Shown here piece by piece: positions 539-7,663 of a stretch of DNA of 18,975 nucleotides. The stretch is from a virus (Duplodnaviria; Heunggongvirae; Uroviricota; Caudoviricetes): IMG/VR virus record IMGVR_UViG_2744054979_000005. One strand, 5' to 3'. Made by a program: the position numbers and the translations under genes. Under the pieces are notes generated by a model. It searched no databases and was not told where the DNA came from. It saw only the letters and a program-made list of their open reading frames with translations. Positions within the stretch are counted from its first letter, which is position 1, and each line of letters opens with the position of its first letter.

Positions 539-996
539 GCAGAGTCGCCGCGATTATTTATGCTTTGGTTATCTGCATCATCGTCTGCCTGTCGTGGGCG
601 GTCAATCATTACCGTGATAACGCCATCGCCTACAAAGAACAGCGTGATAAAAAAGTCAGTGAGCTGAAGCAGTCGATCGCCACCATCGCTGACATGCAGC
701 AGCGTCAGCGTGATGTTGCTGCACTCGATGCAAAGTACTCGAGAGAATTAGCCAATGCGAAAGCTGAAAATGAAACTCTGCGCGCTGATGTTGCCGCTGG
801 TCGTCGTCGGTTGCACATCAAAGCAGTCTGTCAGTCAGTGCGTGAAGCCACCACCGCCTCCGGCGTGGATAATGCAACCAGCCCCCGACTGGCAGACACC
901 GCTGAACGGGATTATTTCACCCTCAGAGAGAGGCTGATCACTATGCAAAAACAACTGGAAGGAACCCAGAAGTATATTAATGAGCAGTGCAGATAG
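535..996 (+). CDS. Rz: i-spanin Rz (inner-membrane spanin subunit)
   Basis: GTG at 535 overlaps the R stop. Product [29 protein letters not shown]... has an N-terminal TM segment and is near-identical, from memory, to lambda Rz. Rz1 is embedded in the +1 frame. Confidence 0.9.
755..937 (+). CDS. Rz1: o-spanin Rz1 (outer-membrane lipoprotein spanin subunit), embedded in Rz
   Basis: 60-aa ORF lying entirely inside Rz in another frame. Signal peptide with lipobox LVVVGC and a PPPPP proline run. Near-identical, from memory, to lambda Rz1. Confidence 0.9.
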
Positions 997-1000
997 AGCT

Positions 1001-1016
1001 GCCCATATCGATGGGC
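1001..1016. terminator. hairpin between convergent Rz and bor 3' ends (possible bidirectional terminator)
   Basis: GCCCAT-ATCG-ATGGGC: 6-bp stem with 4-nt loop, placed exactly between the Rz stop (996) and bor stop (1028). No clean T-run follows, so terminator function is uncertain. Confidence 0.35.
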
Positions 1017-1027
1017 AACTCATGCAA

Positions 1028-1259
1028 TTATTGTGAGCAATACACACGCGCTTCCAGTGGAGTATAAATGCCTAAAGTAATAAAACCGAGAAATCCATTT
1101 ACGAATGTTTGCTGGGTTTCTGTTTTAACAACATTTTCTGCGCCGCCACAAATTTTGGCTGCATCAACAGTTTTCTCCTGTCCAATTCCCGAAACGAAGA
1201 AATGATGGGTGATGGTTTCCTTTGGTGTTACTGCTGTCGGTTTGTTTCCAACAGTAAAC
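1028..1259 (-). CDS. bor: Bor lipoprotein (serum-resistance moron), 5'-incomplete because of assembly gap
   Basis: Minus-strand frame ends ...GIYTPLEARVYCSQ*. Translated segment FTVGNKPTAVTPKETITHHFFVSGIGQEKTVDAAKICGGAENVVKTETQQTFVNGFLGFITLGIYTPLEARVYCSQ matches lambda Bor from about residue 22 to the end. The signal peptide/lipobox and start codon are missing: the frame runs into the N-run at 1260-1268, and sequence beyond it does not encode a Bor N-terminus. Confidence 0.85.
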
Positions 1260-2225: not shown

Positions 2226-2708
2226 ATGTCTGGACCCCCGAAAACCCCGCCACGCCTGCATTTGATACGAGGCAACCCCTCAAAGCGGCCAGTTAAAGAC
2301 CTCAAAAAAACCGCTAAAAAGGATGAAAAAGGTCTCCCTAAAATTCCGCAACATTTAGGGGCGCAGGGGAAGTACTGGTTCAGGCGAATGGCGGAAGAGC
2401 TGAATGCGGAAGGGATCATTTCTCAGCTTGATGCGCGTGCGCTTGAGCTACTGGTGGAAGCCTATACCGAATACCGGCATCACTGCGAAACACTCGATGT
2501 TGAGGGGTACACCTACCGCTCGAAAACGCAGAACGGTGATGTGCTGATTAAGGCACACCCGGCTGCTGCGATGAAAGCGGATGCCTGGAAGCGGATCCGG
2601 GCGATGCTTGCAGAATTTGGTATGTCACCGGCAAGCCGGGCAAAAGTAAATACCGCCGGACCGGATAATGTTGATCCGCTGGCAGAGCTTTTAAAAGCGA
2701 GAGACTGA
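2226..2708 (+). CDS. terminase small subunit (P27-family-like)
   Basis: 160-aa ORF directly upstream of the large terminase with a 1-nt stop/start overlap (TGATG). Basic N-terminus (PKTPPRLHLIRGNPSKRPVKDLKK) typical of this small-terminase family. Confidence 0.8.
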   Translation: MSGPPKTPPRLHLIRGNPSKRPVKDLKKTAKKDEKGLPKIPQHLGAQGKYWFRRMAEELNAEGIISQLDARALELLVEAYTEYRHHCETLDVEGYTYRSKTQNGDVLIKAHPAAAMKADAWKRIRAMLAEFGMSPASRAKVNTAGPDNVDPLAELLKARD

Positions 2709-4465
2709 TGGCAAAAGTGGCTGACGGGATCCGCTACGCCGAACGTGTTGTTGCAGGAGAAATTGTTGCTGGCGAATTTGTCCGCCTGGCCTGCCAGCGT
2801 TTTCTTGATGATCTGAAGTACGGCGAAAAGCGGGGGATTTATTTCAGTGAACCCCGTGCGCAGCACATCCTGAATTTCTACAAATTTGTGCCTCATGTAA
2901 AAGGGGCACTGGCAGGCCAGCCCATTGAGTTGATGGACTGGCATGTATTTATCCTCATTAATATTTTTGGTTTTGTCATTCCGCTGGTCAATGAAGAAAC
3001 CGGGGAAGTTGTCATGCGCAGCGATGGCAGCGGACGTCCGGTGATGGTGCGCCGGTTCCGGACGGCGTACAACGAAGTCGCCCGTAAAAACGCAAAATCA
3101 ACCCTGTCATCGGGTATCGGCCTGTATATGACGGGGGCAGATAGTGAAGGCGGAGCTGAGGTGTATTCAGCCGCAACCACGCGTGACCAGGCCAGAATCG
3201 TGTTTGAAGACGCCAAAAATATGGTCAGAAAAGCCCGGTCGACACTCGGGCGGTTGTTTGATTTCAACAAGCTGGCGATTTACCAGGAGCAGAGCGCATC
3301 AAAATTTGAACCGCTTTCCTCGGATGCAAACAACCTGGACGGTCTGAACATCCACTGCGCCATTATTGATGAGCTGCATGCACATAAAACCCGCGACGTG
3401 TGGGACGTTCTGGAAACGGCAACCGGTGCCCGTCTGCAGTCCCTGTTATTTGGTATCACCACGGCTGGCTTTAACAAGGAAGGGATTTGTTACGAGCAGC
3501 GTGATTACGCCATCAAGGTATTGCGAGGCTATAACAGCGACGTGGAGGGCGCTGTAAAAGACGACTCTTACTTTGCGATCATTTACACGCTTGATGAGGG
3601 AGATGATCCGTTTGATGAAACGGTCTGGCAGAAAGCGAATCCTGGCCTGGGCATCTGTAAACGCTGGGATGATCTGCGTCGTCTGGCGAAAAAAGCGAAG
3701 GAGCAGGTCTCTGCGCGGGTGAATTTTTTTACCAAACACATGAATGTGTGGGTCACTGCCGAATCTGCCTGGATGGATATGATTAAGTGGGAGAAGTGCG
3801 AATACATTGCTCCACAACATGAGCTGAAAACATATCCCATGTGGGTCGGCGTCGACCTTGCTCATAAGATTGATATCTGTGCGGCGGCAAAACTCTGGCG
3901 AACCGATAACGGACATGTTCATGCTGATTTTAAATTCTGGCTTCCGGAAGGACGGCTGGAACGATGCTCGCGGCAGCAGGCAGAACTTTACCGGAAGTGG
4001 GCGGAGATGGATAAGCTCATCCTGACGGATGGTGATGTTATCGATCATGCTCAGATAAAAAGTGACTTACTGGAATGGATTGGCGGTGAAAACCTCAGGG
4101 AACTGGGATTTGACCCGTGGAGCGCAATGCAGTTCAGTCTGGCACTGGCTGAAGAAGGGATACCGCTGGTGGAGGTTCCGCAGACGGTCCGCAATCTGTC
4201 AGAGGCCATGAAGGAAACGGAATCACTGGTTTATGCCGGGCGTTTCCATCACAGCAATCATCCGGTCATGAACTGGATGATGTCTAACGTTACTGTAAAA
4301 CCGGACAAAAACGACAACATCTTCCCGAATAAATCCACGCCGGAAGCCAAAATCGACGGCCCTGTTGCGCTTTTTACAGCCATGAGCCGCTTTCTGGTAA
4401 ATGGCGGGGGCGTGAATGACTTTCTGTCCACGCTTGATCCTGATGAGGACCTGTTAATTCTGTGA
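2708..4465 (+). CDS. terminase large subunit (HK97-like)
   Basis: 585-aa ORF in the canonical position between small terminase and portal. Length and overall composition fit an HK97-type large terminase. Confidence 0.9.
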   Translation: MAKVADGIRYAERVVAGEIVAGEFVRLACQRFLDDLKYGEKRGIYFSEPRAQHILNFYKFVPHVKGALAGQPIELMDWHVFILINIFGFVIPLVNEETGEVVMRSDGSGRPVMVRRFRTAYNEVARKNAKSTLSSGIGLYMTGADSEGGAEVYSAATTRDQARIVFEDAKNMVRKARSTLGRLFDFNKLAIYQEQSASKFEPLSSDANNLDGLNIHCAIIDELHAHKTRDVWDVLETATGARLQSLLFGITTAGFNKEGICYEQRDYAIKVLRGYNSDVEGAVKDDSYFAIIYTLDEGDDPFDETVWQKANPGLGICKRWDDLRRLAKKAKEQVSARVNFFTKHMNVWVTAESAWMDMIKWEKCEYIAPQHELKTYPMWVGVDLAHKIDICAAAKLWRTDNGHVHADFKFWLPEGRLERCSRQQAELYRKWAEMDKLILTDGDVIDHAQIKSDLLEWIGGENLRELGFDPWSAMQFSLALAEEGIPLVEVPQTVRNLSEAMKETESLVYAGRFHHSNHPVMNWMMSNVTVKPDKNDNIFPNKSTPEAKIDGPVALFTAMSRFLVNGGGVNDFLSTLDPDEDLLIL

Positions 4466-4623
4466 AACAGCTTATTACTGATATGACCGGGCTGATCGGT
4501 TTCGGTCTGCTCACTGCTGGCGTTTATCTGTATGCAGGTCTGCCAGCGTCTCTGATGCTGTCTGGCTGTTTGTTGCTGCTTTATGCACTGGTGGTGTCCA
4601 TGAGGAGAAAACATGCTTCTTGA
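4462..4623 (+). CDS. hypothetical small membrane protein (about 53 aa, two predicted TM helices)
   Basis: ORF starting GTG 4462 (overlapping the TerL stop as GTGA) or ATG 4483, ending TGA 4621-4623. Translation VKQLITDMTGLIGFGLLTAGVYLYAGLPASLMLSGCLLLLYALVVSMRRKHAS: two hydrophobic stretches plus a basic tail. Its 3' end overlaps the portal RBS and start. No strong SD of its own. Confidence 0.4.
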   Translation: MKQLITDMTGLIGFGLLTAGVYLYAGLPASLMLSGCLLLLYALVVSMRRKHAS

Positions 4624-5839
4624 TGCTCTGTTTCGCAGTGAGCCTCTGGAAAATCCCTCGGTTCCGGTAACCGGAGAGGCCGCAGAGACGGATAATATTT
4701 TTGCCCGGGATGTGTATGTCAGTCCGGAAACGTCCATGAGGCTGGCTGCTGTCTATGCCTGTATTTATGTTATTTCATCCAGTGTGGCTCAGATGCCCCT
4801 GCATGTGATGCGAAAAACGAATGAGCATGTTCAGCCGGCACGCGATCACCCGTTGTTCTGGCTCGTTCATGATGAACCGAATGCCTGGCAGACCAGCTAT
4901 AAGTGGCGGGAACTGAAGCAGCGTCATGTGCTGGGGTGGGGCAATGGTTATACGTGGGTGAAACGTAATCGTCGTGGCGAGGTTACCAGTCTTGAATGCT
5001 GTATGCCATGGGAAACCACGTTACTTAACACCGGAGGGCGTCATACCTACGGTGTGTATAACGAAGAGGGTGCATTTGCGGTAAGTCCGGACGACATGAT
5101 CCATATCAGGGCGCTGGGAAACAATCAGAAAATGGGACTGAGTCCGATCATGCAGCATGCTGAAACCATTGGTATGGGAATGAGTGGTCAGCAGTATACC
5201 AGTGCTTTTTTTAACGGTAATGCCCGTCCTGCCGGGATTATTTCTGTGAAAAATGAACTGAACGAACAGAGTTGGAGCAGGCTCAAGAATATGTGGCAGC
5301 GGGCGGTGACAGCGCTTCGCAGCCAGGAAAATAAAACCATGTTGCTGCCTGCGCAACTGGATTACCGCGCTCTGACAGTTTCTCCGGTGGATGCTCAGAT
5401 CATTGATATGACCAAGCTGAACCGGTCGATGATTGCCGGGATTTTTAATGTCCCGGCGCACATGATTAATGACCTGGAAAAAGCCACATTTTCGAATATT
5501 ACGCAGCAGGCGATTCAGTTTGTTCGCTACACGATGATGCCCTGGGTTGCGAACTGGGAGCAGGAGCTTAACCGTCGCCTGTTTACCCGTACAGAACGGG
5601 CTGCCGGGTATTACGTTCGTTTCAACCTCACGGGGTTGCTCCGTGGGACCCCACAGGAGCGTGCGCAGTTCTATCACTTTGCCATTACAGATGGCTGGAT
5701 GAGTCGGAATGAAGCCAGGGCATTTGAGGATATGAACCCGGTTGACGGTCTGGATGAAATGCTGGTCAGCGTAAATGCAGCAAATCCGTTGAATAACTTT
5801 AAAGATACGAAAGGCAAAGAGGAAAAGAACGATGAATGA
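4613..5839 (+). CDS. portal protein (HK97 family)
   Basis: 408-aa ORF with AGGAG RBS 5 nt upstream. Position after the large terminase and before the prohead protease; sequence character typical of HK97-family portals. Confidence 0.9.
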   Translation: MLLDALFRSEPLENPSVPVTGEAAETDNIFARDVYVSPETSMRLAAVYACIYVISSSVAQMPLHVMRKTNEHVQPARDHPLFWLVHDEPNAWQTSYKWRELKQRHVLGWGNGYTWVKRNRRGEVTSLECCMPWETTLLNTGGRHTYGVYNEEGAFAVSPDDMIHIRALGNNQKMGLSPIMQHAETIGMGMSGQQYTSAFFNGNARPAGIISVKNELNEQSWSRLKNMWQRAVTALRSQENKTMLLPAQLDYRALTVSPVDAQIIDMTKLNRSMIAGIFNVPAHMINDLEKATFSNITQQAIQFVRYTMMPWVANWEQELNRRLFTRTERAAGYYVRFNLTGLLRGTPQERAQFYHFAITDGWMSRNEARAFEDMNPVDGLDEMLVSVNAANPLNNFKDTKGKEEKNDE

Positions 5840-6431
5840 CCGTGAAACGCGCTGTTACAGCGGGGAGGTGCGGGCGGAACAATATGATAATGCCCCGACC
5901 CACATTCTGGGCTATGGCTCGGTATTTAACAGTCGTTCAGAACCTCTGTGGGGATTTCGTGAAATCATCAAGCCGGGGGCTTTTGATGATGTACTGAATG
6001 ATGATGTACGTGGCTTGTTTAATCATGATCCTAATTTCATTCTCGGACGAAGTTCTGCCGGCACGTTGTCATTGTCGGTGGATGAACGCGGTTTACGTTA
6101 TGACATTGTTGCACCGGATACTCCGACTATTTGTGACCTGGTGCTATCTCCAATGTTGCGTGGTGACATTAATCAGTCCTCGTTCGCGTTTCGTGTCGCC
6201 CGTGACGGAGAGAGCTGGTATGAAGACGACGAGGGGATTGTTATCCGGGAAATCACGCGCATTTCTCGTCTGTATGACGTCAGCCCGGTGACATATCCGG
6301 CCTATCAGGACGCAGACTCTGGTGTCCGCTCAATGAAAGCCTGGCAGGAAGCGCGGGCGAGTGGTGCGCTGAAGAAAGCTGTTAACGAACGAATGGCGCG
6401 TGAGCGTCTTTTGACCCTTCTTAATGCATAA
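5832..6431 (+). CDS. prohead maturation protease (HK97 gp4-like)
   Basis: 199-aa ORF overlapping the portal 3' end. N-terminal ILGYGSVFNSRSEP...IKPGAFDD is characteristic of caudoviral prohead serine proteases. Located immediately before the major capsid gene. Confidence 0.85.
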   Translation: MNDRETRCYSGEVRAEQYDNAPTHILGYGSVFNSRSEPLWGFREIIKPGAFDDVLNDDVRGLFNHDPNFILGRSSAGTLSLSVDERGLRYDIVAPDTPTICDLVLSPMLRGDINQSSFAFRVARDGESWYEDDEGIVIREITRISRLYDVSPVTYPAYQDADSGVRSMKAWQEARASGALKKAVNERMARERLLTLLNA

Positions 6432-6445
6432 GGATACTACTGACG

Positions 6446-7663
6446 ATGAAACTTCATGAGATGAAGCAAAAACGAAACACCATTGCAAAGGATATGCGTG
6501 CACTGCATGAAAAAATTGGTGATAACGCATGGACTGATGAGCAACGGGCAGAGTGGAACAGGGCGAAAGCTGAGCTGGATGCGCTGGATGAGCAAATCGC
6601 CCGTGAAGAAGAGTTGCGCCGTCAGGATCAGGCATATGTGGATGAGTCCGGGCCGGAAGAGCGCCAGAATAATGAGGCGGAGAACGGGAAAAAGGCGGTG
6701 GAAGAGAAGCGCGCTGCGGCATTTAACCGTTTTCTGCGTGCCGGATTTGCAGAACTGAATGCTGAAGAGCGTAATCTGATGCGTGAACTGCGGGCTCAGA
6801 GTGTAACAACGGATTCTCAGGGCGGATATACGGTGCCCACGCAGATGCGTAACAAAATCATTGACACCATGAAGGCTTATGGCGGGATTGCCAGTGTGGC
6901 GCAACTTCTGACCACATCAACCGGGCAGGATATCACCTGGTCAACGTCTGATGGCACGACTGAAGAGGGCGAACTGCTGGCGGAAAATACAGCCGCAACG
7001 GAACAGGATGTGACGTTCGGGACCGCTATTCTGGGGGCTAAAAAGCTGTCATCAAAAATAATTCGTGTGTCCAATGAGCTGCTCCAGGACAGTGGGGTGG
7101 ATATTGAATCTTATCTGGCAAACCGTATTGCCCAGCGTATTGGTCGTGGAGAGGCAAAATATCTGGTTCAGGGGACCGGAACGGGATCACCGTTACAGCC
7201 AAAAGGGCTGGCAGCGTCGGTGACGGGAACCATCCAGACTGTAGCCTCTGCCGCTTTCACCTGGAAAGAAATGAATGCCCTGAAACATGCCATTGATCCG
7301 GCATATCGTGGTGGGCCGAAATACCGCTGGGCATTCAATGATGCCACATTGCAGACTATTGAAGAGATGGAGGATGGACAGAAACGCCCGTTATGGCTGC
7401 CGGATATTGCAGGCGGTACGCCGGCTACTGTGCTGGGGATCCCTTATGTTATTGATCAGGCTATTGACGGGATTGGTACCGGAAAAAAATTCATTTTCCT
7501 GGGGGATTTCAACCGCTTTATCATTCGCCGCGTTACTTATATGGAACTGAAACGTCTGGTTGAGCGTTATGCTGAGTTTGATCAGGTGGCATTTCTGGCT
7601 TTCCATCGTTTTGACTGTGTGCTGGAAGATGTGGCAGCCATCAAGGCGCTCACTGGCAAATAA
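6446..7663 (+). CDS. major capsid protein (HK97 fold) with N-terminal scaffolding (delta) domain
   Basis: 405-aa ORF. The first ~100 residues are a charged, coiled-coil-like segment (EQRAEWNRAKAELDALDEQIAREEELRRQ) typical of the HK97 delta domain. Followed by a terminator. Confidence 0.9.
   Translation: MKLHEMKQKRNTIAKDMRALHEKIGDNAWTDEQRAEWNRAKAELDALDEQIAREEELRRQDQAYVDESGPEERQNNEAENGKKAVEEKRAAAFNRFLRAGFAELNAEERNLMRELRAQSVTTDSQGGYTVPTQMRNKIIDTMKAYGGIASVAQLLTTSTGQDITWSTSDGTTEEGELLAENTAATEQDVTFGTAILGAKKLSSKIIRVSNELLQDSGVDIESYLANRIAQRIGRGEAKYLVQGTGTGSPLQPKGLAASVTGTIQTVASAAFTWKEMNALKHAIDPAYRGGPKYRWAFNDATLQTIEEMEDGQKRPLWLPDIAGGTPATVLGIPYVIDQAIDGIGTGKKFIFLGDFNRFIIRRVTYMELKRLVERYAEFDQVAFLAFHRFDCVLEDVAAIKALTGK

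Follow-up and report, generated by a model that had tools for sequence, protein, structure and literature searches.

An open reading frame (ORF) of 53 codons, located at positions 4462-4623 (+) between the large terminase (TerL) and portal genes of a lambdoid prophage, encodes a small hydrophobic protein with two predicted helices. The prophage is the Caudoviricetes record IMGVR_UViG_2744054979_000005 of IMG/VR, and the whole stretch analysed, 18,975 nucleotides long, is referred to here as the window. That the gene is real, that its product is a two-helix hydrophobic protein and that it is linked to the portal gene is, as a joint claim, close to certain in our assessment, and sequence comparison indicates that the gene is an old, long-standing element of HK97-type head-gene blocks, at their portal end, and that it is inherited together with the portal gene. 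As sequence, the ORF and its family are known already: both are found in RefSeq and in PHROGs, and the RefSeq D3 record lists orf3 of phage D3, a member of the wider family, as a hypothetical protein. A possible role, and the one we tentatively favour, is that of an accessory which acts from the inner membrane in portal synthesis or assembly and is produced late, through translational coupling, because adjacency to the portal gene and co-inheritance with it are conserved across phyla, as expected of co-adapted partners within a head module.

The small gene is tightly interlocked with both of its neighbours. Its GTG start codon (4462-4464) overlaps the TGA stop codon of TerL (4463-4465) in the sequence GTGA (4462-4465, +), and its own stop codon (TGA, 4621-4623) lies within the portal gene (4613-5839, +), which opens with ATG at 4613 and overlaps the end of the small ORF by 11 nt. 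The upstream gene (2708-4465, +) matches the Pfam families TerL_ATPase (6e-27) and TerL_nuclease (3e-52) and is a ‘terminase large subunit’ in RefSeq, and the downstream gene matches the portal family Phage_portal (PF04860) with an E-value of 1.9e-100. The ORF, its GTGA overlap and the position of its end over the portal ribosome-binding site and start had been noted in a preliminary description of the window and are confirmed from the sequence; the gap between TerL and portal reported there is likewise present, but it measures 147 nt and not 160 nt. The sole Shine-Dalgarno-like element before the small ORF, as read from the sequence, is GAGGA at 4445-4449 (+), 12 nt from the GTG, and because this distance is sub-optimal the small ORF is probably initiated by ribosomes that terminate on TerL. 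At the other end, the portal Shine-Dalgarno sequence GAGGAG (4602-4607, +) is embedded in codons 47-49 of the small ORF (M47-R48-R49). Positions 4600-4623 are thus dual-coding: the portal Shine-Dalgarno region ATGAGGAGAAAA encodes M-R-R-K of the protein tail, and the last three codons of the small ORF overlap the first portal codons (MLLD), so that conservation of the tail may partly reflect constraints on portal translation or on the portal N-terminus. This geometry is compatible with translational coupling at both ends, and we infer that such coupling takes place. A coupling based on RNA structure was considered and rejected, as the junction RNA at the ribosome-binding sites of the portal and of the small ORF does not fold better than shuffled controls do (z = 0.16 and -0.22, respectively). 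No promoter-like or terminator-like site is found on the + strand near 4400-4650, and the GC content of the small ORF (0.494) is close to that of the flanking TerL and portal genes and the downstream protease and major capsid protein genes (0.506-0.513; small terminase, 0.532).

The reading frame is maintained by selection. ORFs of 53 codons with the same overlaps are present in SfV, Morganella IME1369_02, Edwardsiella EPP-1 and Klebsiella VIPKPNMC05, with 49-62% identity and zero indels; frame and length (52-54 codons) are kept, again free of indels, in homologs that are 40-66% identical, and a range of 50-55 codons is maintained in the small-ORF family. Among the 13 window-type E. coli alleles (of 29 distinct DNA alleles drawn from 85 loci), 11 synonymous and 2 non-synonymous sites segregate (binomial P = 3e-5), and pairwise ratios of non-synonymous to synonymous substitution rates (dN/dS) against diverged homologs are 0.3-0.5. 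Four near-invariant glycines (G13, G20, G26 and G35), together with the motif GxYL..FGL..AL, are kept down to ~30% identity and across 264 clusters of family members. The sole disrupted copies seen are in a degenerating symbiont genome (locus L142) and at a truncated prophage edge (L040). Taken by itself, a short ORF with a GTG start and a weak, distant Shine-Dalgarno element could be a chance ORF or, as the preliminary description had proposed, a non-functional remnant in decay; the conservation and the purifying selection refute this, and we give it practically no credence. The comparison of relatives suggested in that description yields a conserved frame and length and no interval of variable length.

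The product, MKQLITDMTGLIGFGLLTAGVYLYAGLPASLMLSGCLLLLYALVVSMRRKHAS (53 residues), is dominated by a single hydrophobic stretch that covers approximately residues 8-46 in hydropathy analysis. AlphaFold2, run with a 110-sequence alignment, predicts a helix from residue 2 to 25, a break at G26 and a second helix from 27 to 52 (mean predicted local distance difference test score (pLDDT) 88.7), and this agrees with the two hydrophobic helices described earlier. On the basis of hydropathy, AlphaFold2 and conservation, a first transmembrane (TM) helix is placed at approximately residues 8-25 (4483-4536, +), with the conserved G13, G20 and the GxYL motif. It is followed by a tight turn at G26-L27 (4537-4542, +), in which G26 does not vary among close family members and is conserved to at least 90% in the broad family, and by a second TM helix at approximately residues 28-46 (4543-4599, +), in which G35 is invariant in 110 diverse members. 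The C-terminal tail MRRKHAS (4600-4620, +), whose codons contain the portal GAGGAG and the first three portal codons, is basic and predicted to be cytoplasmic. Topology predictions of this kind rest on the positive-inside rule, under which the basic tail and a turn of only 2-4 residues would place both ends of the protein in the cytoplasm (N-in/C-in); the small protein presumably inserts into the membrane.

Profile searches place the protein in a large family that databases already list. It matches PHROG 7105, a group of unknown function, over its full length (residues 1-52 on profile positions 1-52 of 52; E 9.4e-20, 71 bits) and, more weakly, PHROG 502 (‘membrane protein’) and PHROG 4810 (E 3e-4 for the latter), and it is identical to the ‘hypothetical protein’ WP_000811487.1 that is annotated at this position in E. 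coli EC958 and the other matched ST131 genomes. A query with the single sequence recovered only near-identical E. coli proteins, so an alignment query was needed; this yielded 101 proteins across Enterobacterales, nearly all 52-53 residues long. A profile search of 1.84 billion representative proteins gave 264 clusters (50% identity; E <= 1e-3), nearly all of 45-70 residues, with the consensus M-x-x-L-x-x-D-x-x-G-L-x-G-x-x-x-L-x-x-G-x-Y-L-x-F-G-L-x-x-A-L-x-x-x-G. The range extends from Enterobacterales to a Chlorobiaceae genome, and the named sources include Pasteurella. All 110 diverse members match PHROG 7105, and 39 and 34 of them also match PHROG 502 and PHROG 4810, respectively. The window protein has the traits of the PHROG 7105/502/4810 superfamily as we delineate it here, namely a length of ~45-65 residues, two hydrophobic helices joined at a glycine, G13/G20/G26/G35 and a basic C-terminal tail, as well as the superfamily’s position directly 5' of a PF04860 portal gene, whose codons overlap or adjoin those of the small gene. 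It has no Pfam match at E <= 1, no NCBIfam family and no match among the PADLOC defence models; one relative matches a ‘2TM effector’ model with an E-value of 0.026. A search for naturally occurring fusions between the small protein and the portal found none; the long ‘members’ are artefacts of frameshifts or contigs, or come from an error in clustering (P0244 is a Rho factor). In the literature searched there is no paper on the small-protein family and no account of a systematic portal linkage, although that search was incomplete and is weak evidence of absence.

A relative with the same position and architecture is D3 orf3, which matches PHROG 4810 over its full length (E 2e-26). Like the window protein, orf3 has two hydrophobic helices and a basic tail in 54 residues, its gene overlaps the TerL stop by 4 nt and the portal start by 8 nt, and the two proteins have in common the motif G-x-Y-x-L-x-G-L-G-x-(A/S)-L. 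It is present in 79 of 80 D3-like loci, and in the 71 that have complete flanks its end lies 8 nt inside the portal gene. The two differ in that the D3 sequence is distant, with only a weak score against the broad family hidden Markov model (HMM; 11 bits), and in that a ClpP-type protease and a T=9 capsid belong to the neighbouring module of D3. The small gene is thus an old and conserved occupant of its slot (42 of 44 loci, 264 clusters, from SfV to D3), and not ‘inserted’ or ‘unexpected’ as had been thought; the apparent anomaly dissolves, because many HK97-type modules have the gene as a conserved and ordinary constituent. The premise behind it, that the portal gene abuts TerL, holds for HK97 itself and fails for HK97-type modules generally. 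In phage lambda, the small gene for gpW, a soluble head-completion protein, lies between terminase gene A and portal gene B. This too shows that abutment of TerL and portal is not universal, since gpW occupies the same slot, whereas the window protein differs from it as a hydrophobic hairpin without a Pfam match.

Family members lie, with few exceptions, just upstream of an HK97-type portal gene, also in phages whose TerL is located elsewhere. All nine distant members that were looked up in their contigs lie directly 5' of a PF04860 portal gene, five of them between TerL and portal. TerL does not adjoin the small gene on the upstream side in three lineages, namely in L086-88, in L091, where the small gene follows a holin gene, and in L096/97, where TerL lies 2.3 kb upstream with five genes between; in all three the small gene overlaps the portal start. 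A 4-nt ATGA overlap with the TerL stop occurs in the SfV, Morganella, Edwardsiella, Klebsiella, Arsenophonus, Pasteurella and D3 loci, the same slot is also occupied in Ralstonia and Vibrio phages with HK97-type (PF04860) portals, and the small gene is found alongside both S78-type and ClpP/S49-type proteases. In SfV (L002, NC_003444) the homolog (2289-2450, 53 residues, ATGA overlap with TerL) is unannotated because the portal is called 48 nt too far upstream, from GTG 2392 (annotated 2392-3666) instead of GTG 2440, the start indicated by homology with the window N-terminus MLLDALFRS. A species-level scan with the window portal gave 47 loci with portals 59-84% identical, from Enterobacterales, Pasteurellaceae and one Paracandidimonas, and the ORF is intact in 42 of the 44 with upstream sequence; one copy is frameshifted (Ca. 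Symbiopectobacterium endolongispinus) and one locus, with a partial portal, lacks the ORF. Among near-identical viral contigs, 79 of 80 carry the gene, and the remaining one is a truncated prophage edge. A first scan of viral contigs by portal and one with the HK97 portal gave only near-identical loci, and a Chlorobiaceae-type portal query gave a single locus.

Sequence divergence follows the same pattern. In 57 distinct triplets of TerL, small protein and portal (1596 pairs, which are non-independent), identity of the small protein correlates with that of the portal (r 0.82; partial r 0.73 given TerL), and its partial correlation with TerL once the portal is controlled is 0.07. In 304 mosaic pairs, with similar portals (>=75%) and dissimilar TerL proteins (<=50%), the small-protein similarity is 0.54, close to the 0.56 of pairs in which both neighbours are similar and well above the 0.30 of pairs in which both differ; the set holds no reverse mosaics, with TerL similar and portal different. 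The comparison of the window with SfV illustrates this, as TerL is 38%, the small protein 53% and the portal 83% identical.

Between lineages, the distribution is patchy. None of 80 HK97-like loci has a family member, and in a diverse environmental set of 75 loci, with portals 33-49% identical to that of L093, 28 have an HMM-detectable member, which abuts the portal in 26. Approximately seven more of the 75 have a look-alike two-TM ORF that abuts the portal and escapes the HMM, two of which match PHROG 502. From these counts, the small gene is stable within lineages and patchy between them.

Patchiness of this depth shows that the gene is unnecessary for head assembly as such, and it is among the points that would fit a late membrane effector acting on the host cell, by superinfection exclusion, by an antiholin- or holin-like influence on lysis timing or by interference with membrane-bound host defence, which merely occupies a permissive slot before the portal. 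Two-TM small proteins with a charged C-terminal tail are typical of such roles (e.g. T4 Imm and the class II holins), the category ‘moron, auxiliary metabolic gene and host takeover’ holds the related PHROG 502, labelled ‘membrane protein’, the L091 member sits just after a holin gene, and the one weak match to a ‘2TM effector’ defence model points the same way. The resemblance to class II holins and pinholins such as S21 may extend to the predicted N-in/C-in topology and the glycine-rich helices; the window protein is, however, shorter and lies outside the lysis cassette, and no holin model of Pfam or NCBIfam matches it. A complete lysis cassette of the prophage itself, with class II holin, lysozyme and lysis protein, lies approximately 4 kb upstream of the small ORF, which, with the lack of a holin Pfam family, also speaks against the holin-like function raised in the preliminary description. 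Accessory effectors are normally variable among close relatives. The retention of this gene by 42 of 44 and 79 of 80 relatives, and the conservation of its portal position and co-inheritance across phyla, thus count against an effector, as do the lack of a significant PADLOC match and the late-only synthesis to be expected from the context, at a time when exclusion would bring little benefit. Exclusion proteins of the T4 Imm and HK97 gp15 type are made early or from the prophage and block DNA entry, and nothing specific favours an exclusion-type function. The same stability among close relatives, with codons that overlap both neighbours, a neighbour-like GC content and no flanking promoter or terminator, is at odds with a moron, the other label that had been offered. 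The overlaps, the GC content and the lack of a promoter or terminator speak against an effector as well. On balance, we regard a host-directed effector as rather unlikely, though it deserves serious consideration.

A further alternative draws on the slot itself. The small genes 6.7 and 7.3 of T7 lie immediately 5' of the portal gene, and such genes of T7-like phages are discussed as coding for minor proteins of the virion, with gp6.7 and gp7.3 described as such (PMC13320782). The likeness to the window gene is one of position, and it extends to a similarly low expected stoichiometry; by analogy, the window protein could be a minor virion or ejection protein that is built in close to the portal or at it and that passes, on infection, into the envelope, where its hydrophobic hairpin could enter the recipient membrane. 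An almost wholly hydrophobic protein of 53 residues is, however, expected in the membrane of the producing cell during synthesis and not in the packaged particle, similarity to known ejection proteins is lacking, and the literature searched holds no virion proteomics evidence for the window family. We consider this reading improbable.

In the portal-accessory model that we favour, the small gene would be expressed late, without a promoter of its own, within a translation chain that runs from TerL through the small ORF to the portal, and translation of the small ORF would deliver ribosomes to the portal start. The product, a helical hairpin of ~50 residues predicted to make a very short turn in the periplasm at G26 and to keep its basic tail in the cytoplasm, would insert into the inner membrane and, once embedded there, might help newly made portal protein to accumulate, to oligomerise or to start prohead assembly near the inner membrane. 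This function would be dispensable in lineages without the gene, such as HK97.

An observation on D3 may bear on this model. In a study of the D3 capsid, addition of the portal gene led to no detectable portal synthesis or incorporation, an outcome that the authors called unexpected (PMC12749128). The deposited D3 clone of portal, protease and major capsid protein genes (PV029250.1, L308; from the 2025 capsid paper) begins at D3 nucleotide 2189, inside orf3 (L314 2107-2271); the first 82 nt of orf3 are removed and the clone thus carries orf3 without its start. The D3 portal start codon is GTG. The result is compatible with the portal-accessory model and can be taken as suggestive only. It would also suit a pure translational spacer or leader, in which the act of translation sets portal dosage by leading ribosomes from TerL to the portal and the peptide itself has no function, and the overlaps of start and stop codons conserved at both ends in the family and the tail codons that double as the portal Shine-Dalgarno sequence would fit such a device. 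The amino-acid sequence is, however, under selection, as seen in the four glycines, the GxYL..FGL..AL motif, the excess of synonymous over non-synonymous changes and the length that is held, and a spacer would be unnecessary because TerL and portal are directly coupled in phages that lack the gene; a functionless leader is therefore very unlikely.

Several observations weigh against a role of the small protein as a portal accessory. The D3 result has other possible causes, including the heterologous host, the GTG start and the vector context, and its authors drew no link to orf3. The window portal has a strong Shine-Dalgarno sequence and an ATG of its own, and since no RNA structure sequesters them (z = 0.16), strict dependence on coupling is not indicated in the window. 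Comparison of portal N-termini with and without the small gene reveals no visible difference, the short M-x-Φ-x-R-L-F motif being present in both groups. Co-inheritance with the portal could merely reflect where recombination junctions are placed, and in 2 of the 28 environmental loci with a member another ORF lies between the small gene and the portal. Finally, TerL directly abuts the portal, with no small gene, in HK97 itself, and it does so in ~22 of the 75 environmental loci, the remainder having unrelated upstream genes; HK97 portals are incorporated without the small gene (PMC12749128). Because HK97 and many other loci do without the gene and the HK97 portal is still incorporated, a portal function cannot be general to this portal type.

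A functional parallel comes from T4, in which the phage factor gp40 is needed for the membrane-bound gp20 portal initiator at the start of the prohead (PMC9958956). The likeness lies in the logic of the working model and is an analogy, not a matter of membership. In T4, genes 40 and 20 are not neighbours, and gp40 is larger than the window protein; membrane-bound assembly is not known for HK97-type phages. A bolder form of the model would make the family a dedicated membrane-embedded portal partner, a widespread and so far unrecognised counterpart of T4 gp40 that is needed, in its lineages, for portal production and accumulation and for a membrane-associated prohead start. We think this unlikely; if true, it would explain the missing D3 portal from clones that truncate orf3.

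The question matters since formation and choice of the portal vertex during prohead assembly are incompletely understood and have mostly been studied with plasmid-expressed portal, protease and capsid genes. Should a portal role be correct, the failure of expression constructs that clip the small gene, the published D3 clone among them, would have a simple cause, a T4-type membrane step would extend to HK97-type phages, and thousands of ‘hypothetical’ small genes would gain a role. Annotation also stands to be corrected where the gene is missed or masked, as in SfV, with its portal start too far upstream, and in one metagenomic contig, with a portal start too far downstream, and the small gene is not to be counted as moron or cargo in prophage surveys of pathogenic E. 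coli ST131. The metagenomic case is locus L093, in which an apparent gap of 127 nt (2308-2435) is a gene-calling artefact; the portal is called 126 nt too far downstream, and its frame opens with ATG 2309 right after the small-ORF stop.

The surroundings of the small gene in the window are those of a lambdoid prophage, of which positions 4300-4800 are 100% identical to E. coli ST131 genomes (e.g. EC958 and JJ1886); 914 of 5426 complete E. coli genomes match this stretch. The local order is HNH endonuclease, P27-family small terminase (2226-2708), TerL, small ORF, portal, S78 prohead protease (5832-6431) and major capsid protein (6446-7663). The HNH endonuclease gene that precedes the P27-type small terminase extends over 1629/1728-2078 (+), its longest ORF (TTG 1629) exceeding the RefSeq call. 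Between the lysis genes and the HNH endonuclease lies a gene for Iss, a Bor-like serum-survival lipoprotein, at ~909-1202 (-), with coordinates transferred from the EC958 annotation. An antisense ORF of 159 codons (4258-4737, -) that runs across the end of TerL, the small ORF and the portal start is most likely spurious and was treated as such because it is not preserved in SfV.

Some further features were seen in individual loci. A short N-terminal motif, M-(L/I/G)-(L/F/I)-(D/E)-(R/K/A)-(L/M)-F, is conserved in many PF04860 portals, as seen in L087, L091, L092, L094, L136, L139, L250, L271, L309 and the window (4613-4640), and loci that lack the small gene have it as well as those that carry it. 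L251 (1891-2333) departs from portal adjacency, as a non-hydrophobic ORF of 64 residues (2034-2228) separates the portal from the small TM gene, which overlaps the stop codon of TerL. The L040 sequence (1-246, equal to protein P0004), from a viral contig, has the small ORF from residue 5 fused in frame to an unrelated N-terminus of 32 residues, which looks like a truncated prophage edge or a rearrangement; this N-terminus may resemble E. coli ModE. The frameshift of the small ORF in Ca. Symbiopectobacterium endolongispinus (L142) is consistent with symbiont genome decay, and Symbiopectobacterium purcellii has five copies of the portal locus with identical small ORFs (L107-L111). In an Arsenophonus-type contig (L090 1782-3511), TerL is split into parts of 127 and 414 residues and the protease is also split, and the small ORF and the portal are intact.

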